A stretch of 64,000 nucleotides of DNA, taken from NCBI GenBank assembly GCA_965228855.1, contig CBDDIJ010000002.1, positions 1,664,001 to 1,728,000 on the forward strand, given 5' to 3'. A program made the position numbers and the translations under genes. The notes beneath the pieces are model-generated. The model saw only the letters and a program-made list of their open reading frames with translations. It searched no databases and had not been told where the DNA came from. Of this stretch, positions 3,980 through 43,343 are shown piece after piece. This stretch comes from Candidatus Obscuribacterales bacterium. GTDB taxonomy: Bacteria; Cyanobacteriota; Vampirovibrionia; Obscuribacterales; Obscuribacteraceae. The first letter of the stretch is position 1. Each line of letters starts with the position of its first letter.

Positions 3980-4660
3980 ATGCGCAGAAAAATTTCTACT
4001 AATAATGTTTTGGTTGCAACCGCGGTGTTGGTTGCCTTGAGCGCGCCAGCCGCGTTTGCACAGGGCGCGACGACCGCGCATGCTCACATGACGCCGGAAG
4101 AGGCTCGCCGACTGGCTGACAATGATCCAGCCAATCCAAAGCTCAAGTTTCAATACGCTGAAGCTCTTCGTCACGCGGGTAAAACCAGCGAAGCTCTCAA
4201 AGAGTATGTTCAGGTTACCGAGATGGATCCCACGAACTATGTGGCTTATCACCAGATAGCGCTGGCGTCACCGGATGCGAAAACTCTGTCCGAATCTATC
4301 AAGCGTTTGACGCACTTGATGTCCGACAAACCCAAAGAGCTGATGCTGCGTGTCGCGCTTTCAGAATTGCTTGAAACCGACGGAGAATACTTCCAGGCCT
4401 CAAAGGTGCTTGTGGACCTGGTTTTCGATAATGCGGTCCCACCTAAATTTACTGCAAAGGTAAACAGTCGTATTCGTTTCCTTCAATCAAAGGCGCGCGG
4501 TGAGCACGCCAACCGCAAAGTCGCGGATACGCATCATAAGACGGATAACGCGCCGCCGCTTCCGTTGCCCGAAGAAAACCTATCGCGTGGTTTGTCCGCC
4601 TCGCGCCTTGAAAAGGGGCATGAAGTCGACGGTTTTGGACATTCACTCCTGCAACACTAA
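3980..4660 (+). CDS. Exported TPR-repeat protein
   Basis: Signal peptide ending AFA-Q; TPR-like helices FQYAEALRHAGK...DPTNYVAYHQIA. Confidence 0.8.
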   Translation: MRRKISTNNVLVATAVLVALSAPAAFAQGATTAHAHMTPEEARRLADNDPANPKLKFQYAEALRHAGKTSEALKEYVQVTEMDPTNYVAYHQIALASPDAKTLSESIKRLTHLMSDKPKELMLRVALSELLETDGEYFQASKVLVDLVFDNAVPPKFTAKVNSRIRFLQSKARGEHANRKVADTHHKTDNAPPLPLPEENLSRGLSASRLEKGHEVDGFGHSLLQH

Positions 4661-4675
4661 AGTTTCTAAACTGAG

Positions 4676-5437
4676 ATGGCGATCATGAAAAAACAAATTT
4701 TGAAAACGCCAACTCTGCTAGATCGACAATCCATGCGAATCCTGGGTGCTCTTTTGGCGCTGACGGCTGTTACTGGTTGTCACGGCAGTTTTGATACCGA
4801 GAAGTTGTCGAAGGTCGAATATGCAAAGAAGGCGCCGTATGAGACTCCTGATGCGCCTTCCCAGAGACCTGTCGTTGGGTCCGATCCTTCCAATGCGTCT
4901 CAGGTTTCGGCTGAAGCGAACATGGCAAAGGAACAAGCCGTTGCGAATGGTTGTCTCGCTGCCTGGCGCAAAGCCTATCGAGACAAGGATGAAGAGGGCT
5001 CGATGAAAATGCTTGAGGAGCTGGACAAAAAATATACCGGCATCTCGACAGTTCAGTTCATGATGGGGCAAGTCAAAGACTATTTCCATAAGCCCGAAGA
5101 AGCGCTGGAGCACTACAAGCGCGCCCACAGCACTAATGAGTTCAGCTCCATGCAGACATTCAAGCTCGCGGAAGCTACTCGCAAATCCGGAGATGCTAAG
5201 GGTTCGATCGTCTACTACAAGAAACTGCTTGAGAATCTCGACCGCGCCACCACCGATTATTCGATGTCAAACATGGAGCAGCTACGCTCTTCAGTGCGGC
5301 TTGGTTTAGTCAAAGCGTATAAGGACTGCAAGCAGAACAGCGAGGCGAAAGCTGAGCTCGACAAAGTTTTGAAAGTCGATGCAAATAATGCAGAGGCTAA
5401 ATCGCTTCTTAAGGAACTCGAAAATACCCGGAAGTAA
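4676..5437 (+). CDS. TPR-repeat lipoprotein
   Basis: Lipobox-like LTAVTGC; TPR helices FMMGQVKDYFHKPEEALEHYKRA and VLKVDANNAEA. The true start may be 4685 or later. Confidence 0.75.
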   Translation: MAIMKKQILKTPTLLDRQSMRILGALLALTAVTGCHGSFDTEKLSKVEYAKKAPYETPDAPSQRPVVGSDPSNASQVSAEANMAKEQAVANGCLAAWRKAYRDKDEEGSMKMLEELDKKYTGISTVQFMMGQVKDYFHKPEEALEHYKRAHSTNEFSSMQTFKLAEATRKSGDAKGSIVYYKKLLENLDRATTDYSMSNMEQLRSSVRLGLVKAYKDCKQNSEAKAELDKVLKVDANNAEAKSLLKELENTRK

Positions 5438-35144: not shown

Positions 35145-38100
35145 ATGAGAAGGATCGAGCTTGCGTTGACAAGTCACCTTGCGAATCTGAAGGTGTTCGC
35201 GATTGCCGGGACTTTGCTCCTTGCTGCGACGCAACCGGCGTCGGCGCGCAATGATTTCTCTTTTCGCGATTTCCGGGAGCAGAATCCCGAGTTGGGACGG
35301 CATGAGGCGCGCCAGGCGTTTAAGTCCGAAGTTCGCGACTTGCGTCAGAACAGTCGTGTGTTCCAAGCCCCTGTAATCAACAATGTCCCATCCACCGACA
35401 CTGTTCAAGTTCAAATCGAAACTCGCGGCAACCATGCTGGCCGCGTGAACAACACGCTGCGCAATCGCTCCGCTCAGATAGGCGATTCCGGTCAATTGAT
35501 CCGCCTGAAAAGCGGCCTCGATCTCGATTTGACCTCGACTCAGCGCAATATCTCCTTAGGCAAAGGTCTGTTCGCTGATGTCGACGCTGTTCAGATAACC
35601 TTTGGCGGCGAAACCAAAACCGTCCACGCCGGCAGTCTGGTCTCCGCTGCGGAATATGTTGCTGTAAAACAGGTGCTGGATGGCGGTTCCCAGAAGGTTG
35701 TTATCGACCGCAGCGGTCGGGCTAGTGGCGGCGAGGTAAACCTTGAAGCTGTCGCATCGGATAGAACAGCTCTTCGTGCATCGTCGCTCGTGATCGCCGA
35801 AGGTGTCACCACATCCGGTGACTTCGGTCGCAACTCAGAATTTAAACTGCTTGGCGATCTGAGCAACTATGGAACATTGTATGCCTTCTCCAGTGACAGC
35901 GGTACAAAGTCTGGAGCGATTCGTGCTCACGACATCAATAATTACAAGGGTGCCACTATCGATTCCAATGTTGATTTGACGCTCGATGCTTCCGGCAATC
36001 TCAATAACTTTGGAACGATTTCGTCCACTGGCAGTCTCACGCTGACCGCTGCAGGTGCGGTCAATAATAGTCGAGGTGGTTCGGTCAAAGCGTCCGGCGA
36101 CATCAATTTGCAGGCTGATGCGGTCAACAATCAAGGCACGATAGAGTCCACCGGTAGCAATATCAATCTGCAAGGTTCGACCCTGGCGTTGATGAACGTC
36201 GATAACAACAAAGGAACCCTGAAAGCGCTAAATGGCGCCATTAACGTTCGCGATGCTTCATATTCGGGAGCCTTCGATTCATACGTAGATGGCGGCGACT
36301 TGCTCAGCAAGGAAGTGAATGTTCACACCGGATACGGTGTCGCTAATGTGTACGTCAACGAATTGACCGGCGTGCTGAATCAATACGGTTCTGCCGCGCA
36401 TATCAAGGCAGATACTGACACTCTCACCTTGGGTACAACCTGTCTGACCGGCGATCCCACGATCTACAACACATCTGGCGATATCAACATTACCGCGGAT
36501 ATCAGCGTGGCAGAGAACCTCGTTTTCGTTGCCTCCGGCGACATCATCGTAGCTGATAACGTCAATATTTTCGCAGGCGATGCTTCTCGCGGTTACGAGA
36601 TGAATTTTATCGCTGGTGCGAGCTTTGTCCCCACGGGCGGTGGTACTGACTCTCCGACGGTCCCTCCTCTAACTGGTGCTGGTGGAGTTGACTTGAACGG
36701 TAAAGCCTCGAAGACTGGAGGCGGCATCATCATGGGCACTAATGTCACAGTGACATCGAGAGCTTCAAACACATCTGGTGACTCCAACGGTGACGGCATC
36801 TTAATGGTGGCATTCAAGGGCAAAACTACGAATGCCGGTAAAGTCGACATCTCAGGCGCGACTATCAAGACGGGTGGAAGTGGGACAGGAACGAACGGTT
36901 CTTTTTTCGTGCTCGCTGCCGGCACCAAAGGCGATGTCATTAAAACGGGCGTAATCGACACCACTGGTGGTTCAGACGATAGTAATTTCGAGGGACTAAT
37001 CGGTTTATATACAGTAGACATTATTACCGAGAAGCGGACCTTCGATCCGAACATTCCGGACACTGGGCACGTTATCTACGATGCGAACGGCGTAAACATC
37101 TCGGACTATCGATTGACCGGAAATAACTTCAGTAAAGGCGGTAACCTGATTATCAACGATGTTATTCCTGGTGACGATATTAAAGGTCGGTCAATGGACC
37201 TTTACGGTGGAGGCGGAGTCAGTATTCTTGGACAGGTAAATTCTTTCTCGCTTGATCCAGGTTCCTTCGGTACCAGCATCGATATGGTGACTAACGACGC
37301 AATAACATCCGGACCAAACGGTTCGCTTAAATCGGAATCCGTAATTTTCCTGATCGCTACCAATGTAATAGGTTCATCTACAGCTCGCATCGTCACTGAC
37401 GCACCTGACGTTGAATTCTTCAACCAGAAAGGCAAGGATGTCTGGGTCACGATTCAGGGCACCGGAGAAGTGGCTATAACCGGACTGGCAAGCAGCAAAG
37501 GGATTATAGATGTCGATGCGTCGGGCAGGCAGGTCAGTTCGCCATTTAACTTGCTCTCCGCAGGTACCGTGAACATAGTTGCTGATAGTCTGGGTGGGAC
37601 CAATCCTTTTCCCGGTCCTCCGCGGAAGCTCAACAACGTTGATGCAGGCGTTCTTAACTTGCATGTTTTGAACGGAGATATAGACAACACGAATTTTGGT
37701 CCGGTCAGCGCACAGTTTGTGACTCTTACCGCCGACAACGGCTCCATTGGCACGAGCAGCAGCTTGCTCGCGGCTCCCACGGGTGTCAAACAGATGGTGC
37801 TCACTGCAGGTAATGGCGGTGTGTTTGTGAACAGCGCGAGTTCGAACTCAATCTCTGTAAGCTCTTCAGCAACCGGCGCGACGACAATTTTCGCGAACGG
37901 CAGTCTGGAGCTTTTAAATGTCTCTTCTCAAGCTGGGGATACGACGATTCAGACCTCCAATGGTACATTGACGGTTGCCGGCAATGTGACAGCGAAGGAT
38001 TCTTTGAGCATCGTCAACACTAACACTAAAGGCAAGTTTGCAATCGACAAGAACATCGTCATCGCCACAGATGGAACCGCCGGCGGTGACGGAAACATTC

Positions 38101-38336
38101 TTCTTTCCGTCGGACCGACTAATATTACTCCGGTGAGTTCGTTGCCGGCCAACGTGACGACTGACATTACCGGAACCGGAACTGTCACGATCACCGGCGG
38201 CGGTATCAAAGCAAAGTCGCCAGACAATGTGTTAATCATTCCGGCTGAAGCAGGAATCACTGTTAATAACGGTTTGAAGAGCTCAAACTTCACCATGGGC
38301 GGTGGTGTTCAGATAACCGCGACTAACAATAACTAG
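35145..38336 (+). CDS. Large secreted filamentous-haemagglutinin-like beta-helical protein or adhesin
   Basis: Signal peptide ending ASA-R; G/N/T/S-rich repeats such as GNLNNFGTISSTGSLTLTAAGAVNN and VNNQGTIES. Confidence 0.75.
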   Translation: MRRIELALTSHLANLKVFAIAGTLLLAATQPASARNDFSFRDFREQNPELGRHEARQAFKSEVRDLRQNSRVFQAPVINNVPSTDTVQVQIETRGNHAGRVNNTLRNRSAQIGDSGQLIRLKSGLDLDLTSTQRNISLGKGLFADVDAVQITFGGETKTVHAGSLVSAAEYVAVKQVLDGGSQKVVIDRSGRASGGEVNLEAVASDRTALRASSLVIAEGVTTSGDFGRNSEFKLLGDLSNYGTLYAFSSDSGTKSGAIRAHDINNYKGATIDSNVDLTLDASGNLNNFGTISSTGSLTLTAAGAVNNSRGGSVKASGDINLQADAVNNQGTIESTGSNINLQGSTLALMNVDNNKGTLKALNGAINVRDASYSGAFDSYVDGGDLLSKEVNVHTGYGVANVYVNELTGVLNQYGSAAHIKADTDTLTLGTTCLTGDPTIYNTSGDINITADISVAENLVFVASGDIIVADNVNIFAGDASRGYEMNFIAGASFVPTGGGTDSPTVPPLTGAGGVDLNGKASKTGGGIIMGTNVTVTSRASNTSGDSNGDGILMVAFKGKTTNAGKVDISGATIKTGGSGTGTNGSFFVLAAGTKGDVIKTGVIDTTGGSDDSNFEGLIGLYTVDIITEKRTFDPNIPDTGHVIYDANGVNISDYRLTGNNFSKGGNLIINDVIPGDDIKGRSMDLYGGGGVSILGQVNSFSLDPGSFGTSIDMVTNDAITSGPNGSLKSESVIFLIATNVIGSSTARIVTDAPDVEFFNQKGKDVWVTIQGTGEVAITGLASSKGIIDVDASGRQVSSPFNLLSAGTVNIVADSLGGTNPFPGPPRKLNNVDAGVLNLHVLNGDIDNTNFGPVSAQFVTLTADNGSIGTSSSLLAAPTGVKQMVLTAGNGGVFVNSASSNSISVSSSATGATTIFANGSLELLNVSSQAGDTTIQTSNGTLTVAGNVTAKDSLSIVNTNTKGKFAIDKNIVIATDGTAGGDGNILLSVGPTNITPVSSLPANVTTDITGTGTVTITGGGIKAKSPDNVLIIPAEAGITVNNGLKSSNFTMGGGVQITATNNN

Positions 38337-38420: not shown

Positions 38421-38654
38421 CTATGAGCCGGTTGGACTGAACGTTCCTTCGTTGCCTAGTTCCTTGGACGCGTCGCACGCGAAGTGTCCGCATCCACAGA
38501 GTTGCATATCGTCGGATGTCTCGACCTTCTCACAAAACTCATTGCAGAATTCGCCTTCCGTCGTCTGGCAATTGCAGCCCACGTGAGAGCACGTTGCGAC
38601 TGCAGTTGCGCTTGAGCTATTGCTCTTTGCTTCACCTTTATCGTTAGTAGCCAT
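38421..38654 (-). CDS. Bacterial metallothionein-like peptide
   Basis: CSHVGCNC...FCNEFC...CGCGHFAC (8 Cys, 2 His in 77 aa); AGGAGA RBS. Confidence 0.8.
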   Translation of the reverse strand: MATNDKGEAKSNSSSATAVATCSHVGCNCQTTEGEFCNEFCEKVETSDDMQLCGCGHFACDASKELGNEGTFSPTGS

Positions 38655-38947: not shown

Positions 38948-39091
38948 AATTTGCCTCTAAATTTCCGATATTTACGAGGCGTAATTGAGTATCAGTTGTT
39001 CCCCGTCTGTGAATCTAGGTGAACTAAGCTTTTATATTCGACTTGCAGTAAGATTAAGCTGAAAGCGAAACGAATCGAAAGGAGAGTCGCC

Positions 39092-40063
39092 TTGAAGAAT
39101 CGAAACAGCGGAAGGCGCGGGGCGAAGGCGCTTGCAGCACTACTTTTCGCCGGTGGACTCATTGTGTCCTCTCAGCCAGCTTTCTCTGAGAGCAAGGTCG
39201 CCGTCGACGACTCAACGATTCGGAAGATCGCTGAAACGCAGATAACGCCGGAAGGACGCGCATACCATTTGCTTAGATACTGTCGCTCCGTTCTTCAAAG
39301 CGGGAATGCTCAGGTTTTAGAAGAAAACTTCCACTATCTCAATGAGCCGAGATATTTTTTTCGAGAGTCAAACATTTTGGCAAACTGGGCTGATGAGCTC
39401 GCCACTAAAAAACTGGACAGTGGAAAACAGTCGAAAGCGTCGAAGAACGCAGTTGTCGCTGAGCACGCTCTGAAAGAGGCCGTCTCGCAGCTAAATAAAT
39501 CGACCAAGAGTTCTATAAAGCTGCATTTATTTTTCATTGCGTCACTTCTGGCTAAACAATCCGGTCATAACGATGTCGCGAAAGAGTGCGATAGCTATGT
39601 TTCGAAAAACATCGATGCCTGTGAAGCGAGTTCGAATGTTGATCTTGAATTGGTTACGGCTGCCGTTTCAGCTTTAAACTCGATGGCGTATGCTATCGTA
39701 CCGATCCGAATTGCAGAACACGAGCAGCCGCCTGGGAAGAACCCGCAGGTCGTTGCCGGAGACCAATCACCGAACGCCGAGGAATTTAAACAGGCGGAGA
39801 AACTAAAACTACGAGCCGCTTCGATCGCTGACCGGCTACCCGCGGACGAGCACGTGCGCCGAAAGGTTCACCGCGATCTATCGCTCTGGTATAAGCAACT
39901 CGGCAAGCCTGAGTTGGCTGATAAGCAAAAGAAAATCGTTTTTCAACTCGTTGGCGTAAACGATGACCGAATACTTTTTCCATCGTCAGGAGTTTGTGGA
40001 CATTTGCTGTGGTGGAAATTGACTTCCGCTAACGCTGCTCGGGTCAAATGCGGCATGGGTTAA
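39092..40063 (+). CDS. Exported helical protein with a C-terminal CGMG motif; candidate MNIO substrate
   Basis: AAGGAG RBS with TTG start; signal peptide with RR ending AFS-E; ends VCGHLLWWKLTSANAARVKCGMG*; 48 nt upstream of DUF692. Confidence 0.8.
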   Translation: MKNRNSGRRGAKALAALLFAGGLIVSSQPAFSESKVAVDDSTIRKIAETQITPEGRAYHLLRYCRSVLQSGNAQVLEENFHYLNEPRYFFRESNILANWADELATKKLDSGKQSKASKNAVVAEHALKEAVSQLNKSTKSSIKLHLFFIASLLAKQSGHNDVAKECDSYVSKNIDACEASSNVDLELVTAAVSALNSMAYAIVPIRIAEHEQPPGKNPQVVAGDQSPNAEEFKQAEKLKLRAASIADRLPADEHVRRKVHRDLSLWYKQLGKPELADKQKKIVFQLVGVNDDRILFPSSGVCGHLLWWKLTSANAARVKCGMG

Positions 40064-40111
40064 TGATGTATTTGCGAAGGACGGCGACGGCGTTTAGGAA
40101 GCGATCAGAAG

Positions 40112-40999
40112 ATGCAGATGCTCAGTCAGAAACCGAAGCTAGGACTTTCCTTAATGCCTTCTGAGGATTTTCAGCAGGCGACCCTTGAGTTGTTTGAACA
40201 AGATCGAGTTGAGGTGGTTGAGTGGAGTTTCGATTTCGCGTTGACCGGTGCCGAGATCGATGTTTGGTCTGCGCAAATTCTTGATCGGTTCAGTAACAAA
40301 AATGCTTTGCTTGGTCACGGTGTGAATCTATCACCGCTATCGGCGAGCTTTTCCGAGCGGCAGGAAAAGTGGTTGGCGCATGCGCGCAGTGAGTTTGAAT
40401 TTAGAAAGTACGTGCATGCTTCGGAACATTTTGGATTCTCGGAGGCGGGACCGATTGCTCACGGCGCACCGTTGGCGGTGCCAATGACTCCTGAATCGCT
40501 CCGTCGCGGCAAGGAGATGCTTAAGCGATACGCTGATGCCGTCCAGTGTCCGGTTGGATTAGAGAATCTGGCGTTTGCCTTTTGCATGGAGGACGTTAAA
40601 CGGCAAGGCGAGTTTATCGATCAATTAATTTCCTCTGTCGATGGATTTTTGCTTTTAGATGCCCATAACATTTATTGCCAGGTTGAAAACTTCGGAGTGC
40701 CTGAACGCGAACTATTGGATTCTTACCCGCTCTCAAAAGTCCGTGAGATACACCTGTCGGGCGGTTCGTGGAGTTTCTCCGAGTCCGGAGCACGACTCGC
40801 TGTGAGGAGAGATACTCATGACGATGTGGTCCCGCAGGAGGTCTTCAATATTGCCACTTTGGCTTTGAAGCTTTGTCCAAGCATTCAGTATGTTATCCTT
40901 GAGCGACTCGCGTACACCATGATGGAACCAGAGCAGCAGCAAGGTTTTCGCGAAGATTTTGAAACCATTGAGGAGATTCTGGAGCTTTGCTATGTCTGA
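40112..40999 (+). CDS. DUF692 family multinuclear non-heme iron oxidative enzyme (MNIO)
   Basis: Fe-ligand motifs GHGVNLS, SEHFGF, GLENL, LLLDAHNIY, EIHLSGG, RDTHD, VILER. Confidence 0.95.
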   Translation: MQMLSQKPKLGLSLMPSEDFQQATLELFEQDRVEVVEWSFDFALTGAEIDVWSAQILDRFSNKNALLGHGVNLSPLSASFSERQEKWLAHARSEFEFRKYVHASEHFGFSEAGPIAHGAPLAVPMTPESLRRGKEMLKRYADAVQCPVGLENLAFAFCMEDVKRQGEFIDQLISSVDGFLLLDAHNIYCQVENFGVPERELLDSYPLSKVREIHLSGGSWSFSESGARLAVRRDTHDDVVPQEVFNIATLALKLCPSIQYVILERLAYTMMEPEQQQGFREDFETIEEILELCYV

Positions 41000-41195
41000 A
41001 GAGTCTGATTTTAAACGGTTTCAAGACGCGCTTGCGGAGCTGCTTGCGAGCGGTTTAACGCAATCGGAAATTCTTGATACGCTGAAAGCCGATTCGCGCT
41101 TTGATTGCTATCGCGAATACGTTGATAGCTTTGAACCGGATATGGTGGCAGTCGCTTGTGAGCTTATGGGGCGATGGGCGAAGCGCAAAGAATGA
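40992..41195 (+). CDS. 67-aa helical protein coupled to DUF692; candidate MNIO partner
   Basis: ATG 40992 overlaps the DUF692 stop (40997-40999), with GGAG upstream; MSEESDFKRFQDALAELL...EPDMVAVACELMGRWAKRKE. Confidence 0.75.
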   Translation: MSEESDFKRFQDALAELLASGLTQSEILDTLKADSRFDCYREYVDSFEPDMVAVACELMGRWAKRKE

Positions 41196-41537: not shown

Positions 41538-43343
41538 TTAGAAGCAAGAGCGAACCGGTTTACTTGTTGAGCGGGCTGAGTTTTTGTATTTCGGAACAAT
41601 GTTAAAAGTGTTGAAGTATCGTCTCTCTGGATCCAAACATTTATAGACCGCATTTTCAGTGAACCAGCCATTGTCTGGACCCATTCTGGAACCACCTTTT
41701 CGTTCTCGCCAACCTGTCACTTTGTCGGTAAGTCTGTCAAGCCGGAATTCTATAGAACGGCTCGCATTGCCACACCAGTTTCCACTATTTAAGCGAAAGT
41801 AGATGATCTCATCTTTGTCATTTGTGCTGCTCCTGCTGAGTAAGCGATAAATTTCACTTCGGTCCATGCCGATTACATCGTAGTCATCTAAAAATTTTCG
41901 CCATAAGTCTACTCTGTTCATGGACTGTTCCTGGTCCAAGCGTTTCCACTCGTCCGGATCAAAGCCGCCCGGTCTTTTATTGCGGACAATGAAAGTGTCA
42001 CCATCCTTTTGGATTTCGCTGAAGCTGCAAGGGACCACAATTTTGCCAAGTTTATTTGATACGCCCCAGCGTAGTTCGTGCTTTTGGTTCTTGGCCTCAG
42101 CTAAGCGAGCAAAGCCTTCACCTATATTCTCTATTTCATAAAATTGAGCATTCAGTACAATCCGTCCCAATGAGTTCATTAGTCCGAGCTTCTTTCTTGC
42201 GACTTCATTGTTGTCTTCGTCGAGTATATCGATATCATCTGAAGCGCTTCCACCCTCGCCGAAGATCCATAAACCGTCTTTCGAGCGAGCGTCAAGAAAG
42301 GTAACTCTGGGTGGGAGTTTAAGCATCAATTCTCCAGCACGCGAGAGCAGCATCCATCGCCCATCTTTGACGCCGGCGAGTTTGTCTCCCTGAAGTTCAA
42401 GCACTGTATATAGTGGCTCAATCACAAATTTTCCGGATCTATCGATGATGCCTGAATGTGTTTCGTCAACACTGACAAATGCAAATGTTTTATTCAAAAA
42501 ATCGCCTGCACTGAAGAATGGTCCGGCTACAATCTCTCCTGAAGTGTCAATGAAGGCAGCCTTTTTAGAGCCTCCATGGAGCATCTCCACAACTGCTCGA
42601 CCGTTGTGAAAGTCTCGCCCGCTTGCGAATCTACCTGGTTCAACTGCCAGGGTTCCGCTTTCGTCAAAGTAGCAGATCGAAACTGCGTCTGGGCCGTAAG
42701 TTCTTGCCCGAAGCAAACCGTCGCAATATCGATGCGACTCTAAGTGAATTGTTTGTGAGAAAGTTAATAGGACTTTGCCGCCACTAGCAATCAGCTCAGT
42801 TCTTTTGAACCCATCATCTTGGTAGGACTCACGGATAAATCGATCTGACCCAAGGTATTGCAGACTGGAGCACTTTGATAGTGGGACAAGAATATTGCCG
42901 TCTCTGTCACAGAAACCGCGCTCACCAGCAGAATTCTCGATCTCAAACATCTCATCGCCCCGGAAGAAATATCTGGTGATCGACGTCGGAAGATTGGGAG
43001 GTCGTTCTTGACTCTGCTTCTTAGTGCCGTTACTTTCTGAGCCGGACTTCGATTCTTCGCCAGCTGGCTTCTTTTGTCCCTTGGCGTTTACCAAGAACGC
43101 GTCATGATTCTTGTCCAAGTAGTGAGGTTCTACCAAAAACCATCCGTCAGCTCTTTTTGTAATACGTCCATAAATTGGCTTCGCCAAAATGTTTCCGTCT
43201 TTATCGATCAAACCAAAATCGTCAGCTCCGGCCGAAGTGTGGAAACCTAAGACGACGAAGGCTGAGACCGCATACAGTATCACTTTTGGCAAGTGATTCA
43301 AGCCGACTGTAATTAAGCTCTTCCTGATAGACGCTCGCTTCAT
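41538..43343 (-). CDS. Exported WG-repeat (KWG-like) protein
   Basis: Repeats FGLIDKDGNIL, GFCDRDGNIL, FIDTSGEIV, GIIDRSGKFVIEP, WGVSNKLGKIVVP; N-terminal signal sequence. Confidence 0.88.
   Translation of the reverse strand: MKRASIRKSLITVGLNHLPKVILYAVSAFVVLGFHTSAGADDFGLIDKDGNILAKPIYGRITKRADGWFLVEPHYLDKNHDAFLVNAKGQKKPAGEESKSGSESNGTKKQSQERPPNLPTSITRYFFRGDEMFEIENSAGERGFCDRDGNILVPLSKCSSLQYLGSDRFIRESYQDDGFKRTELIASGGKVLLTFSQTIHLESHRYCDGLLRARTYGPDAVSICYFDESGTLAVEPGRFASGRDFHNGRAVVEMLHGGSKKAAFIDTSGEIVAGPFFSAGDFLNKTFAFVSVDETHSGIIDRSGKFVIEPLYTVLELQGDKLAGVKDGRWMLLSRAGELMLKLPPRVTFLDARSKDGLWIFGEGGSASDDIDILDEDNNEVARKKLGLMNSLGRIVLNAQFYEIENIGEGFARLAEAKNQKHELRWGVSNKLGKIVVPCSFSEIQKDGDTFIVRNKRPGGFDPDEWKRLDQEQSMNRVDLWRKFLDDYDVIGMDRSEIYRLLSRSSTNDKDEIIYFRLNSGNWCGNASRSIEFRLDRLTDKVTGWRERKGGSRMGPDNGWFTENAVYKCLDPERRYFNTFNIVPKYKNSARSTSKPVRSCF

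Follow-up and report, generated by a model that had tools for sequence, protein, structure and literature searches.

A stretched Cx(n)C tail on MelA-type proteins and a predicted large thioether ring in a mel-type cluster of Obscuribacterales

ChrH-type chemistry has been described as requiring a CPxCGxG motif in which one extra residue is tolerated (PMC12636315). Which product would be expected of a ChrH-type enzyme encoded next to a protein whose last two cysteines stand much further apart? The question was raised by a locus in the window, the 64,000-nucleotide stretch of Candidatus Obscuribacterales DNA analysed here. Three co-oriented genes at 39092-40063, 40112-40999 and 40992-41195 (all +) encode proteins of 323, 295 and 67 aa. 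The 323-aa protein ends in VCGHLLWWKLTSANAARVKCGMG, which reads C302-G-H-L-L-W-W-x11-C320-G-M-G and leaves 17 residues between the two cysteines. The coordinates, the gene order and the Cx17C pattern with its CGMG end, all given in a preliminary description of this DNA, held on re-reading of the sequence and its open reading frames. Compared with CPxCGxG, the protein has the CGxG end, and its first cysteine lies 17 residues upstream with no proline. The CGMG tail is not a product of chance: 3 of the 85,526 ORFs of at least 30 aa in the whole genome end in CGMG, all three being paralogues with the same long tail, and 0.0075 such ends would be expected by chance among the 7,907 ORFs of at least 150 aa.

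A Shine-Dalgarno-like AGGAG (39080..39084, +) lies 7 nt before the TTG start of the 323-aa gene, a start supported by the orthologue in L141, which has ATG at the same residue. The 67-aa gene begins within the end of the enzyme gene (8-nt overlap), and homologues favour its ATG at 40992 over an upstream TTG at 40959. Two public contigs that span the stretch, and may be its source data, show zero differences. A scan for promoters and terminators around the cluster gave results at chance level, and no conserved accessory gene recurred in more than 6 of 27 loci. Divergent from the cluster is a 77-aa Cys-rich ORF (38421-38654, -), which adjoins it only in one close relative and which we take to resemble bacterial metallothioneins, with no Pfam support. 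Further out lie a haemagglutinin-repeat protein (35145-38336, +; 33 matches in the genome) and a WG-repeat protein (41538-43343, -; 15 matches), each from a large paralogue family with no conserved adjacency to the cluster.

The 295-aa protein (40112..40999, +) matched PF05114 with E 1.5e-27 and 96.9 bits against a curated cut-off of 25. Its best NCBIfam model was MNIO_ChrH, with 326 bits over profile positions 1-283 of 363. Bufferin and oxazolin MNIOs (BufB, HvfB) share the PF05114 fold and have Cys substrates with signal peptides, but their models gave only 83 and 64 bits on this enzyme. The score falls short of the 600-bit cut-off of the ChrH equivalog NF050165, as does that of the proven MelH (325 bits), so this cut-off excludes known subfamily members. 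The putative iron ligands H69, H106, E151, D183, H214, D234, H236 and E264 were invariant in 30 of 30 aligned enzymes; six of them (H69, H106, D183, H214, D234 and H236) were matched to H65/H102, D179/H210 and D228/H230 of DybH by order and offset rather than by direct alignment with DybH. The enzyme is 71% identical over 293 aa to MelH. The initial reading of a DUF692 enzyme with all Fe-ligand motifs, and of one belonging to the ChrH type, is borne out by these results. Four MNIOs are encoded in the 8.2-Mb genome, and this one alone is ChrH-like; the other three scored best with BufB/HvfB-type models and fell outside the ChrH-like clade.

The 67-aa protein (40992..41195, +) is 56% identical to MelHc and 48% identical to residues 324-389 of a natural fusion enzyme whose match covers the ChrH profile from end to end. 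By these identities the gene is MelHc, the detached C-terminal domain of ChrH-type enzymes; the C-terminal helical domain of the subfamily is present here as a separate gene, and the 295-aa protein, a MelH orthologue, represents the TIM-barrel part only. In one member of the close enzyme clade, L056:7980-9152, helper and enzyme are fused (390 aa), with a long-tail substrate upstream.

MNIO modification of a full-size exported protein has already been shown for MelA1 with MelH and MelHc (PMC13056109). The mel precursors are TPR-containing proteins of 30-40 kDa that are SPI-exported and end in CPACGMG. MelA1 is a dimer with an SPI signal, its -4 Da product needs both MelH and the small MelHc, and MelHc, to which MelH binds, is the detached C-terminal domain of ChrH (PMC13056109). 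The source of the mel cluster was Candidatus Melainabacteria bacterium SJ512 (PMC13056109; preprint PMC12636315). The SJ512 record, L130, encodes the enzyme and the helper, a precursor ending in CPACGMG and, after melHc, a fourth protein with a Cx19C tail (4089-5075). The LysC tail of the CPACGMG precursor, LFPQPAPCPACGMG, agrees with the published mass of 1388.62. The main texts of PMC13056109 and PMC12636315 make no mention of this Cx19C paralogue; the name MelA1 implies that the authors saw a second precursor. The 323-aa protein of the window is homologous to MelA1 (26% identity over the full length, pairwise E 5e-16) and 37% identical to the Cx19C paralogue.

Judged by homology, the window's cluster is an orthologous mel-type cluster, with the same gene order, a split helper, a 30-40 kDa TPR-like substrate that is likely exported and a terminal CGMG. 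It differs in that MelA1 carries CPAC and a 4-residue ring, whereas the 323-aa protein carries C-G-x3-WW-x11-C, and in that the window's only adjacent substrate is long-tailed. The ChrA/ChrH (chryseobasin) and DybA/DybH systems share the ChrH-subfamily enzyme, the terminal CGxG and the expected hydantoin chemistry, but their substrates are short CPxCGxG peptides, their enzymes are fused to the C-terminal domain and DybA is lipidated. Because protein-level modification by a mel-type system is established, and the window's cluster is homologous to it in all three genes, the cluster is not categorically new, and the novelty that the preliminary description saw in protein-level modification was given up in view of the MelA1 precedent (PMC13056109). 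What appears new here is the stretched Cx(n)C tail on MelA-type proteins, the types of enzyme, helper and substrate being already known. Literature searches brought up no long-spacer substrates, and these are not mentioned in the main texts of PMC13056109 and PMC12636315 or in passages of PMC12452194; the supplement of PMC13056109 may show them.

Homology, structural model and tail motif place the 323-aa protein (39092..40063, +) in a long-tail clade of MelA-family precursors. Its N-terminus combines a basic N-region with a hydropathy peak of 2.5 (residues 15-25) and lacks an early cysteine, which fits an SPI signal peptide of about 32 residues (residues 1-32; 39092..39187, +) as far as hydropathy and sequence indicate, and export of the protein is likely. 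The first cysteine is residue 64, and the lipobox Cys that follows the signal peptide of DAG-RiPPs is absent. Tat export was rejected as a family trait, a TATFIND-like motif being present in only 22 of 179 relatives. A TPR_12 match was weak (E 0.012), and TPR_12 was found in 35 of 89 relatives. The model is all-helical (pLDDT 84) with a helical-repeat body. Fold searches with it returned generic helical repeats only (Foldseek best E 0.022; best Z 10.7), and the ESM Atlas returned only generic TPR clusters. The model and the MelA1-homologous body agree with the full-size, TPR-like substrate first described, its export being predicted.

The tail of the clade follows the pattern C-G-x3-W-W-x(9-13)-C-G-[MRL]-G in place of CPAC. 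C302 was present in 89 of 89 long-tail members and W307 and W308 each in 88, and the WW pair occurred in none of 25 short-tail members. In two AlphaFold2 models residues 298-306 formed a confident hairpin beside the body (C302-G303 and W307-W308, 39995..40015, +; block pLDDT 87-94), and residues 311-323 were poorly defined and gave no distances (pLDDT 66-69 for 311-320). The 11 residues that follow WW (309-319; 40016..40048, +) form a hypervariable loop, with a mean pairwise identity of 0.105 versus 0.567 in the preceding TPR region. At the end, C320, G321 and G323 were invariant in all 89; the terminal C320-G-M-G and stop (40049..40063, +) would, by analogy with DybA, hold the oxidation site. 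Conservation of CGMG among homologues, on which the preliminary description had staked its reading, was already evident in the first search, where 39 of 39 proteins, query included, had a CGMG or CGRG end and a first Cys far from it.

When long and short tails were aligned, C302 fell on the first Cys of CPAC, after a shared L-[FY]-P-x4 motif. Since the body is MelA1-homologous and C302 holds the first-Cys position, the long spacer seems to have been inserted into a CxxC tail already present, rather than the CGMG tag freshly grafted, as proposed at first. In a tree built with the tail removed (FastTree, midpoint root), 89 long-tail proteins lay on one side of a branch and 25 short-tail proteins on the other, with support of 97. 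Spacers in 82 distinct tails ranged from 15 to 19, with 16 in 57; position +5 was W in 81 of these tails and position +6 in 80. A profile search gave 201 clusters at E <=1e-10, and the best 150 of the 201 were classified by their last two cysteines: 129 were long (spacers 11-28), 9 scored short and 12 were incomplete or had no such end. Among these nine, three were long tails with an extra Cys, two had lost the first Cys and four were short or intermediate. Natural spacers found overall were 2, 3, 5, 8, 11, 12, 14-20, 26 and 28. Individual variants include L209:4546-5559, a long tail in which the first Cys is lost and a new CxxC present, and L217:488-1483 and L057:2450-3463, with intermediate spacers of 12 (no WW) and 5.

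Long tails were closely tied to the enzyme. ChrH-like enzymes were found in 64 of 104 family genomes, 28 matches being 64-100% identical to the window enzyme and 41 more distant. The 28 close enzymes grouped together with support 100; within this clade, loci with long tails only, with short tails only and with both kinds were intermixed, with no separate long-tail enzyme clade. Their loci carried long tails only in 20 cases, both kinds in five and short tails only in three, so that long tails lay beside the close enzyme in 25 of 28 loci (L130, which may duplicate one of the 28, was given no separate count), and the synteny with DUF692 foreseen in the preliminary description was found. Of 41 more distant loci 13 were fetched, and 12 had short tails and one had none. 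In this distant clade (L064-L075), CxxCGxG tails occur on diverse scaffolds, from 73 to 539 aa long, and the enzymes are either fused or split. The long-tail profile matched 28 of the 104 genomes, of which 25 had an intact long tail, and all 25 had the close enzyme; of the remaining three, one had a short-tail match only, one a gene cut off by the end of a contig and one a gene in decay. The genomes in these linkage counts are kin rather than independent, and the exceptions are few.

The exceptions among tails and enzymes point one way. In G170 (L218:6400-7530), a single case, only 32 aa of the enzyme are left and neither tail cysteine survives, with WW and body still in frame. Among 197 distinct tails, a count to which five exceptions were added by hand, 189 had both cysteines and three were without WW; in three the first Cys was gone and a new one stood near the last, one had lost both ends, and one fragment (P0179) kept the first Cys and had lost only CGxG. 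The first Cys was thus lost four times: in three of these tails a new Cys lies 2-3 residues ahead of the last one, and the fourth also lost its CGxG end. Of the three compensating gains, two probably have a common origin and the other is on a 78-aa fragment.

These results bear on one alternative, that the long tails are unmodified, C302-C320 is an ordinary periplasmic disulfide and the enzyme acts on short-tail proteins encoded elsewhere. Likely export of the protein into an oxidising compartment fits this account, and the genome does encode another possible substrate: a 244-aa TPR protein with a signal-like start, ending in RQCLACGRG (G000:C2:2531568-2532302, +), is 33% identical over 189 aa to the 539-aa product of a gene that immediately precedes a ChrH-like MNIO in L065 and could be a short-tail substrate in trans. 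A disulfide, however, would have no need of a CG[MRL]G that is strictly terminal, and the enzyme linkage in 25 of 28 loci, the co-occurrence in 25 of 25 genomes and the joint decay of enzyme and both cysteines in G170 all speak against it. We regard this alternative as decidedly unlikely, although that CxxCGRG protein, as the possible true substrate, also counts against a ring in the 323-aa protein.

What, then, would the enzyme make of the long tail? DybH oxidises the second Cys of DybA first, the hydantoin forms without the first Cys, and ring closure comes last (PMC13733907). A seven-residue motif on GFP suffices for modification, and DybH accepts and cyclises CPAACGMG, one extra Ala giving the largest ring shown (PMC12636315). 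By analogy, the enzyme and its helper would oxidise C320, the last Cys of the 323-aa protein, as DybH does with the second Cys. C302 would serve as the closing thiol in a 19-residue thioether ring (-4 Da), replacing the 4-residue ring of MelA1. The modification would precede the likely export, and the WW pair may hold C302 against the TPR body. On balance we consider it somewhat more likely than not that the enzyme oxidises C320 and closes this predicted ring with C302. Identity of enzyme and helper to MelH and MelHc with intact ligands argues for it, as do the position of C302 at the first Cys of CPAC, the range of natural spacers, the enzyme linkage, the joint decay in G170, the Cys compensation, the late closure of the ring on an electrophile that other thiols can reach (PMC13733907) and the acceptance of CPAACGMG by DybH. 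The larger ring suggested in the preliminary description has in this way gained comparative support, and its product stands as a prediction.

Against the ring, the largest ring shown has five residues and the intermediate is unstable. In DybA without the first Cys the intermediate either decays or adds glutathione, an electrophile that an outside thiol can trap (PMC13733907), and closure over 17 residues must for that reason outrun capture by glutathione. Three matches to glutathione synthetase were found in the genome, all below cut-off. C166 and C177, which occur for the most part only in the long clade and are largely conserved there (83 and 74 of 89; both kept in 68, one alone in 15 and 6, neither in 0), could compete. 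A C166-C177 disulfide was disfavoured, the two being lost independently and lying on one helix. Genetic co-dependence of two cysteines, moreover, is not a covalent bond between them. It is conceivable that C320 is oxidised and the hydantoin formed, but that another thiol closes: C302 of a second protomer, MelA1 being dimeric (PMC13056109), or C166, C177 or a small cellular thiol, as when glutathione captures the electrophile of DybA. The tight modal spacer of 16 is in keeping with the need for a fixed reach. Spacers of 26 and 28 nevertheless exist, C166 and C177 are lost independently where C302 is invariant, and loss of C302 was answered by a new intramolecular CxxC or CxC; closure by another thiol is accordingly judged unlikely.

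A different chemistry might also be considered, in which each Cys-Gly is oxidised separately, or the reaction halts at a thioaldehyde or formylglycine, leaving a metal-binding or reactive tail and no large ring. G303 follows C302 in 85 of 89 long tails, so that each of the two cysteines belongs to a CG dipeptide; other MNIOs are described as oxidising internal cysteines independently of one another (PMC13056109, introduction), and an Fe3 mutant of DybH halts at the aldehyde (PMC13733907). The window enzyme, in contrast, keeps the Fe3-site residues along with its close identity to MelH, long-tail enzymes form no clade of their own, C302 lacks the G-[MRL]-G end, and no metal-handling gene was recurrent next to the loci. 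Such an outcome appears distinctly improbable.

If ring closure does take place in the long tails, the published substrates are not the most frequent ones of the MelH clade in this family, and the real requirement of the enzyme would be a terminal CGxG and a reachable thiol. It would then be a leader-free enzyme for large, reduction-stable, sequence-tolerant rings on proteins, of use in cyclisation and display. Were 4- and 19-residue rings interchangeable, the analogy with the lantibiotic B ring (PMC13056109) could not be the whole story. MelH/MelHc are functional in E. coli, and the published mel cluster also carries a long-tail paralogue.

Where the window has a single long-tail gene, a close relative has four in 9.3 kb; at the DNA level the two loci are 81.5% identical in the substrate gene and 95.9% in the enzyme region. 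In the largest array found (L207/L208), a single enzyme gene is preceded by seven substrate genes. Among 39 pairs with bodies at least 70% identical, which are not independent, loops were at least 80% alike in 15 and at most 30% alike in 17, which suggests that loops are kept or replaced wholesale. Residue-changing codons made up 38 of 111 in the loop versus 94 of 803 in the adjacent region (11 hand-picked pairs), a contrast that does not establish positive selection on the loop. The product would be a TPR scaffold, secreted and displaying a constrained loop that differs from paralogue to paralogue; recognition at a surface is a guess. We put forward tentatively, as possible rather than probable, that one Obscuribacterales MNIO staples 16- to 30-residue thioether rings onto secreted TPR scaffolds, with loops swapped between near-identical bodies. 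With the same reserve, this might embrace up to seven substrate genes per array and others scattered, each paralogue with its own variable loop, and its rings might be the largest that we found proposed for any MNIO. If it is true, these genes form a natural repertoire of enzyme-cyclised loops.

The long tail appears confined to one family of proteins. A DNA pattern searched in 185,579 genomes matched 113 stretches, of which 55 were C-termini of the family, 50 off-frame, seven internal and one on a non-family short ORF; this last reads like a shadow frame, and occurrence on unrelated scaffolds was rejected. All five matches in viral contigs were off-frame. In metagenomes, where the spacer was fixed at 16, 20 of 23 loci belonged to the family, two were copies of a 98-aa ORF in DNA of 73% GC and one had no ORF. 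These DNA patterns demand exact CGMG and WW and miss variants. Titles, obtained for 80 of the 113 stretches, name the records with the tail as Obscuribacterales, Melainabacteria, unassigned bacteria and one MAG labelled Planktothrix. No member of this protein family was found in 400 other genomes sampled from the phylum or in 120 genomes of other families in the class.

Within the window's own genome, the further CGMG-tailed proteins anticipated in the preliminary description were found as two long-tail orphans ending in Cx16C-GMG, G000:C3:2874982-2876025 (-) and G000:C5:931562-932614 (-), with no MNIO nearby; these may be served in trans by the window enzyme. Relatives of both keep identical or near-identical loops. 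Elsewhere in this genome, at G000:C5:1041127-1042984, another MNIO follows a 299-aa protein that ends in repeated GGC/CGGG units and is presumably a TIGR04222-type precursor.
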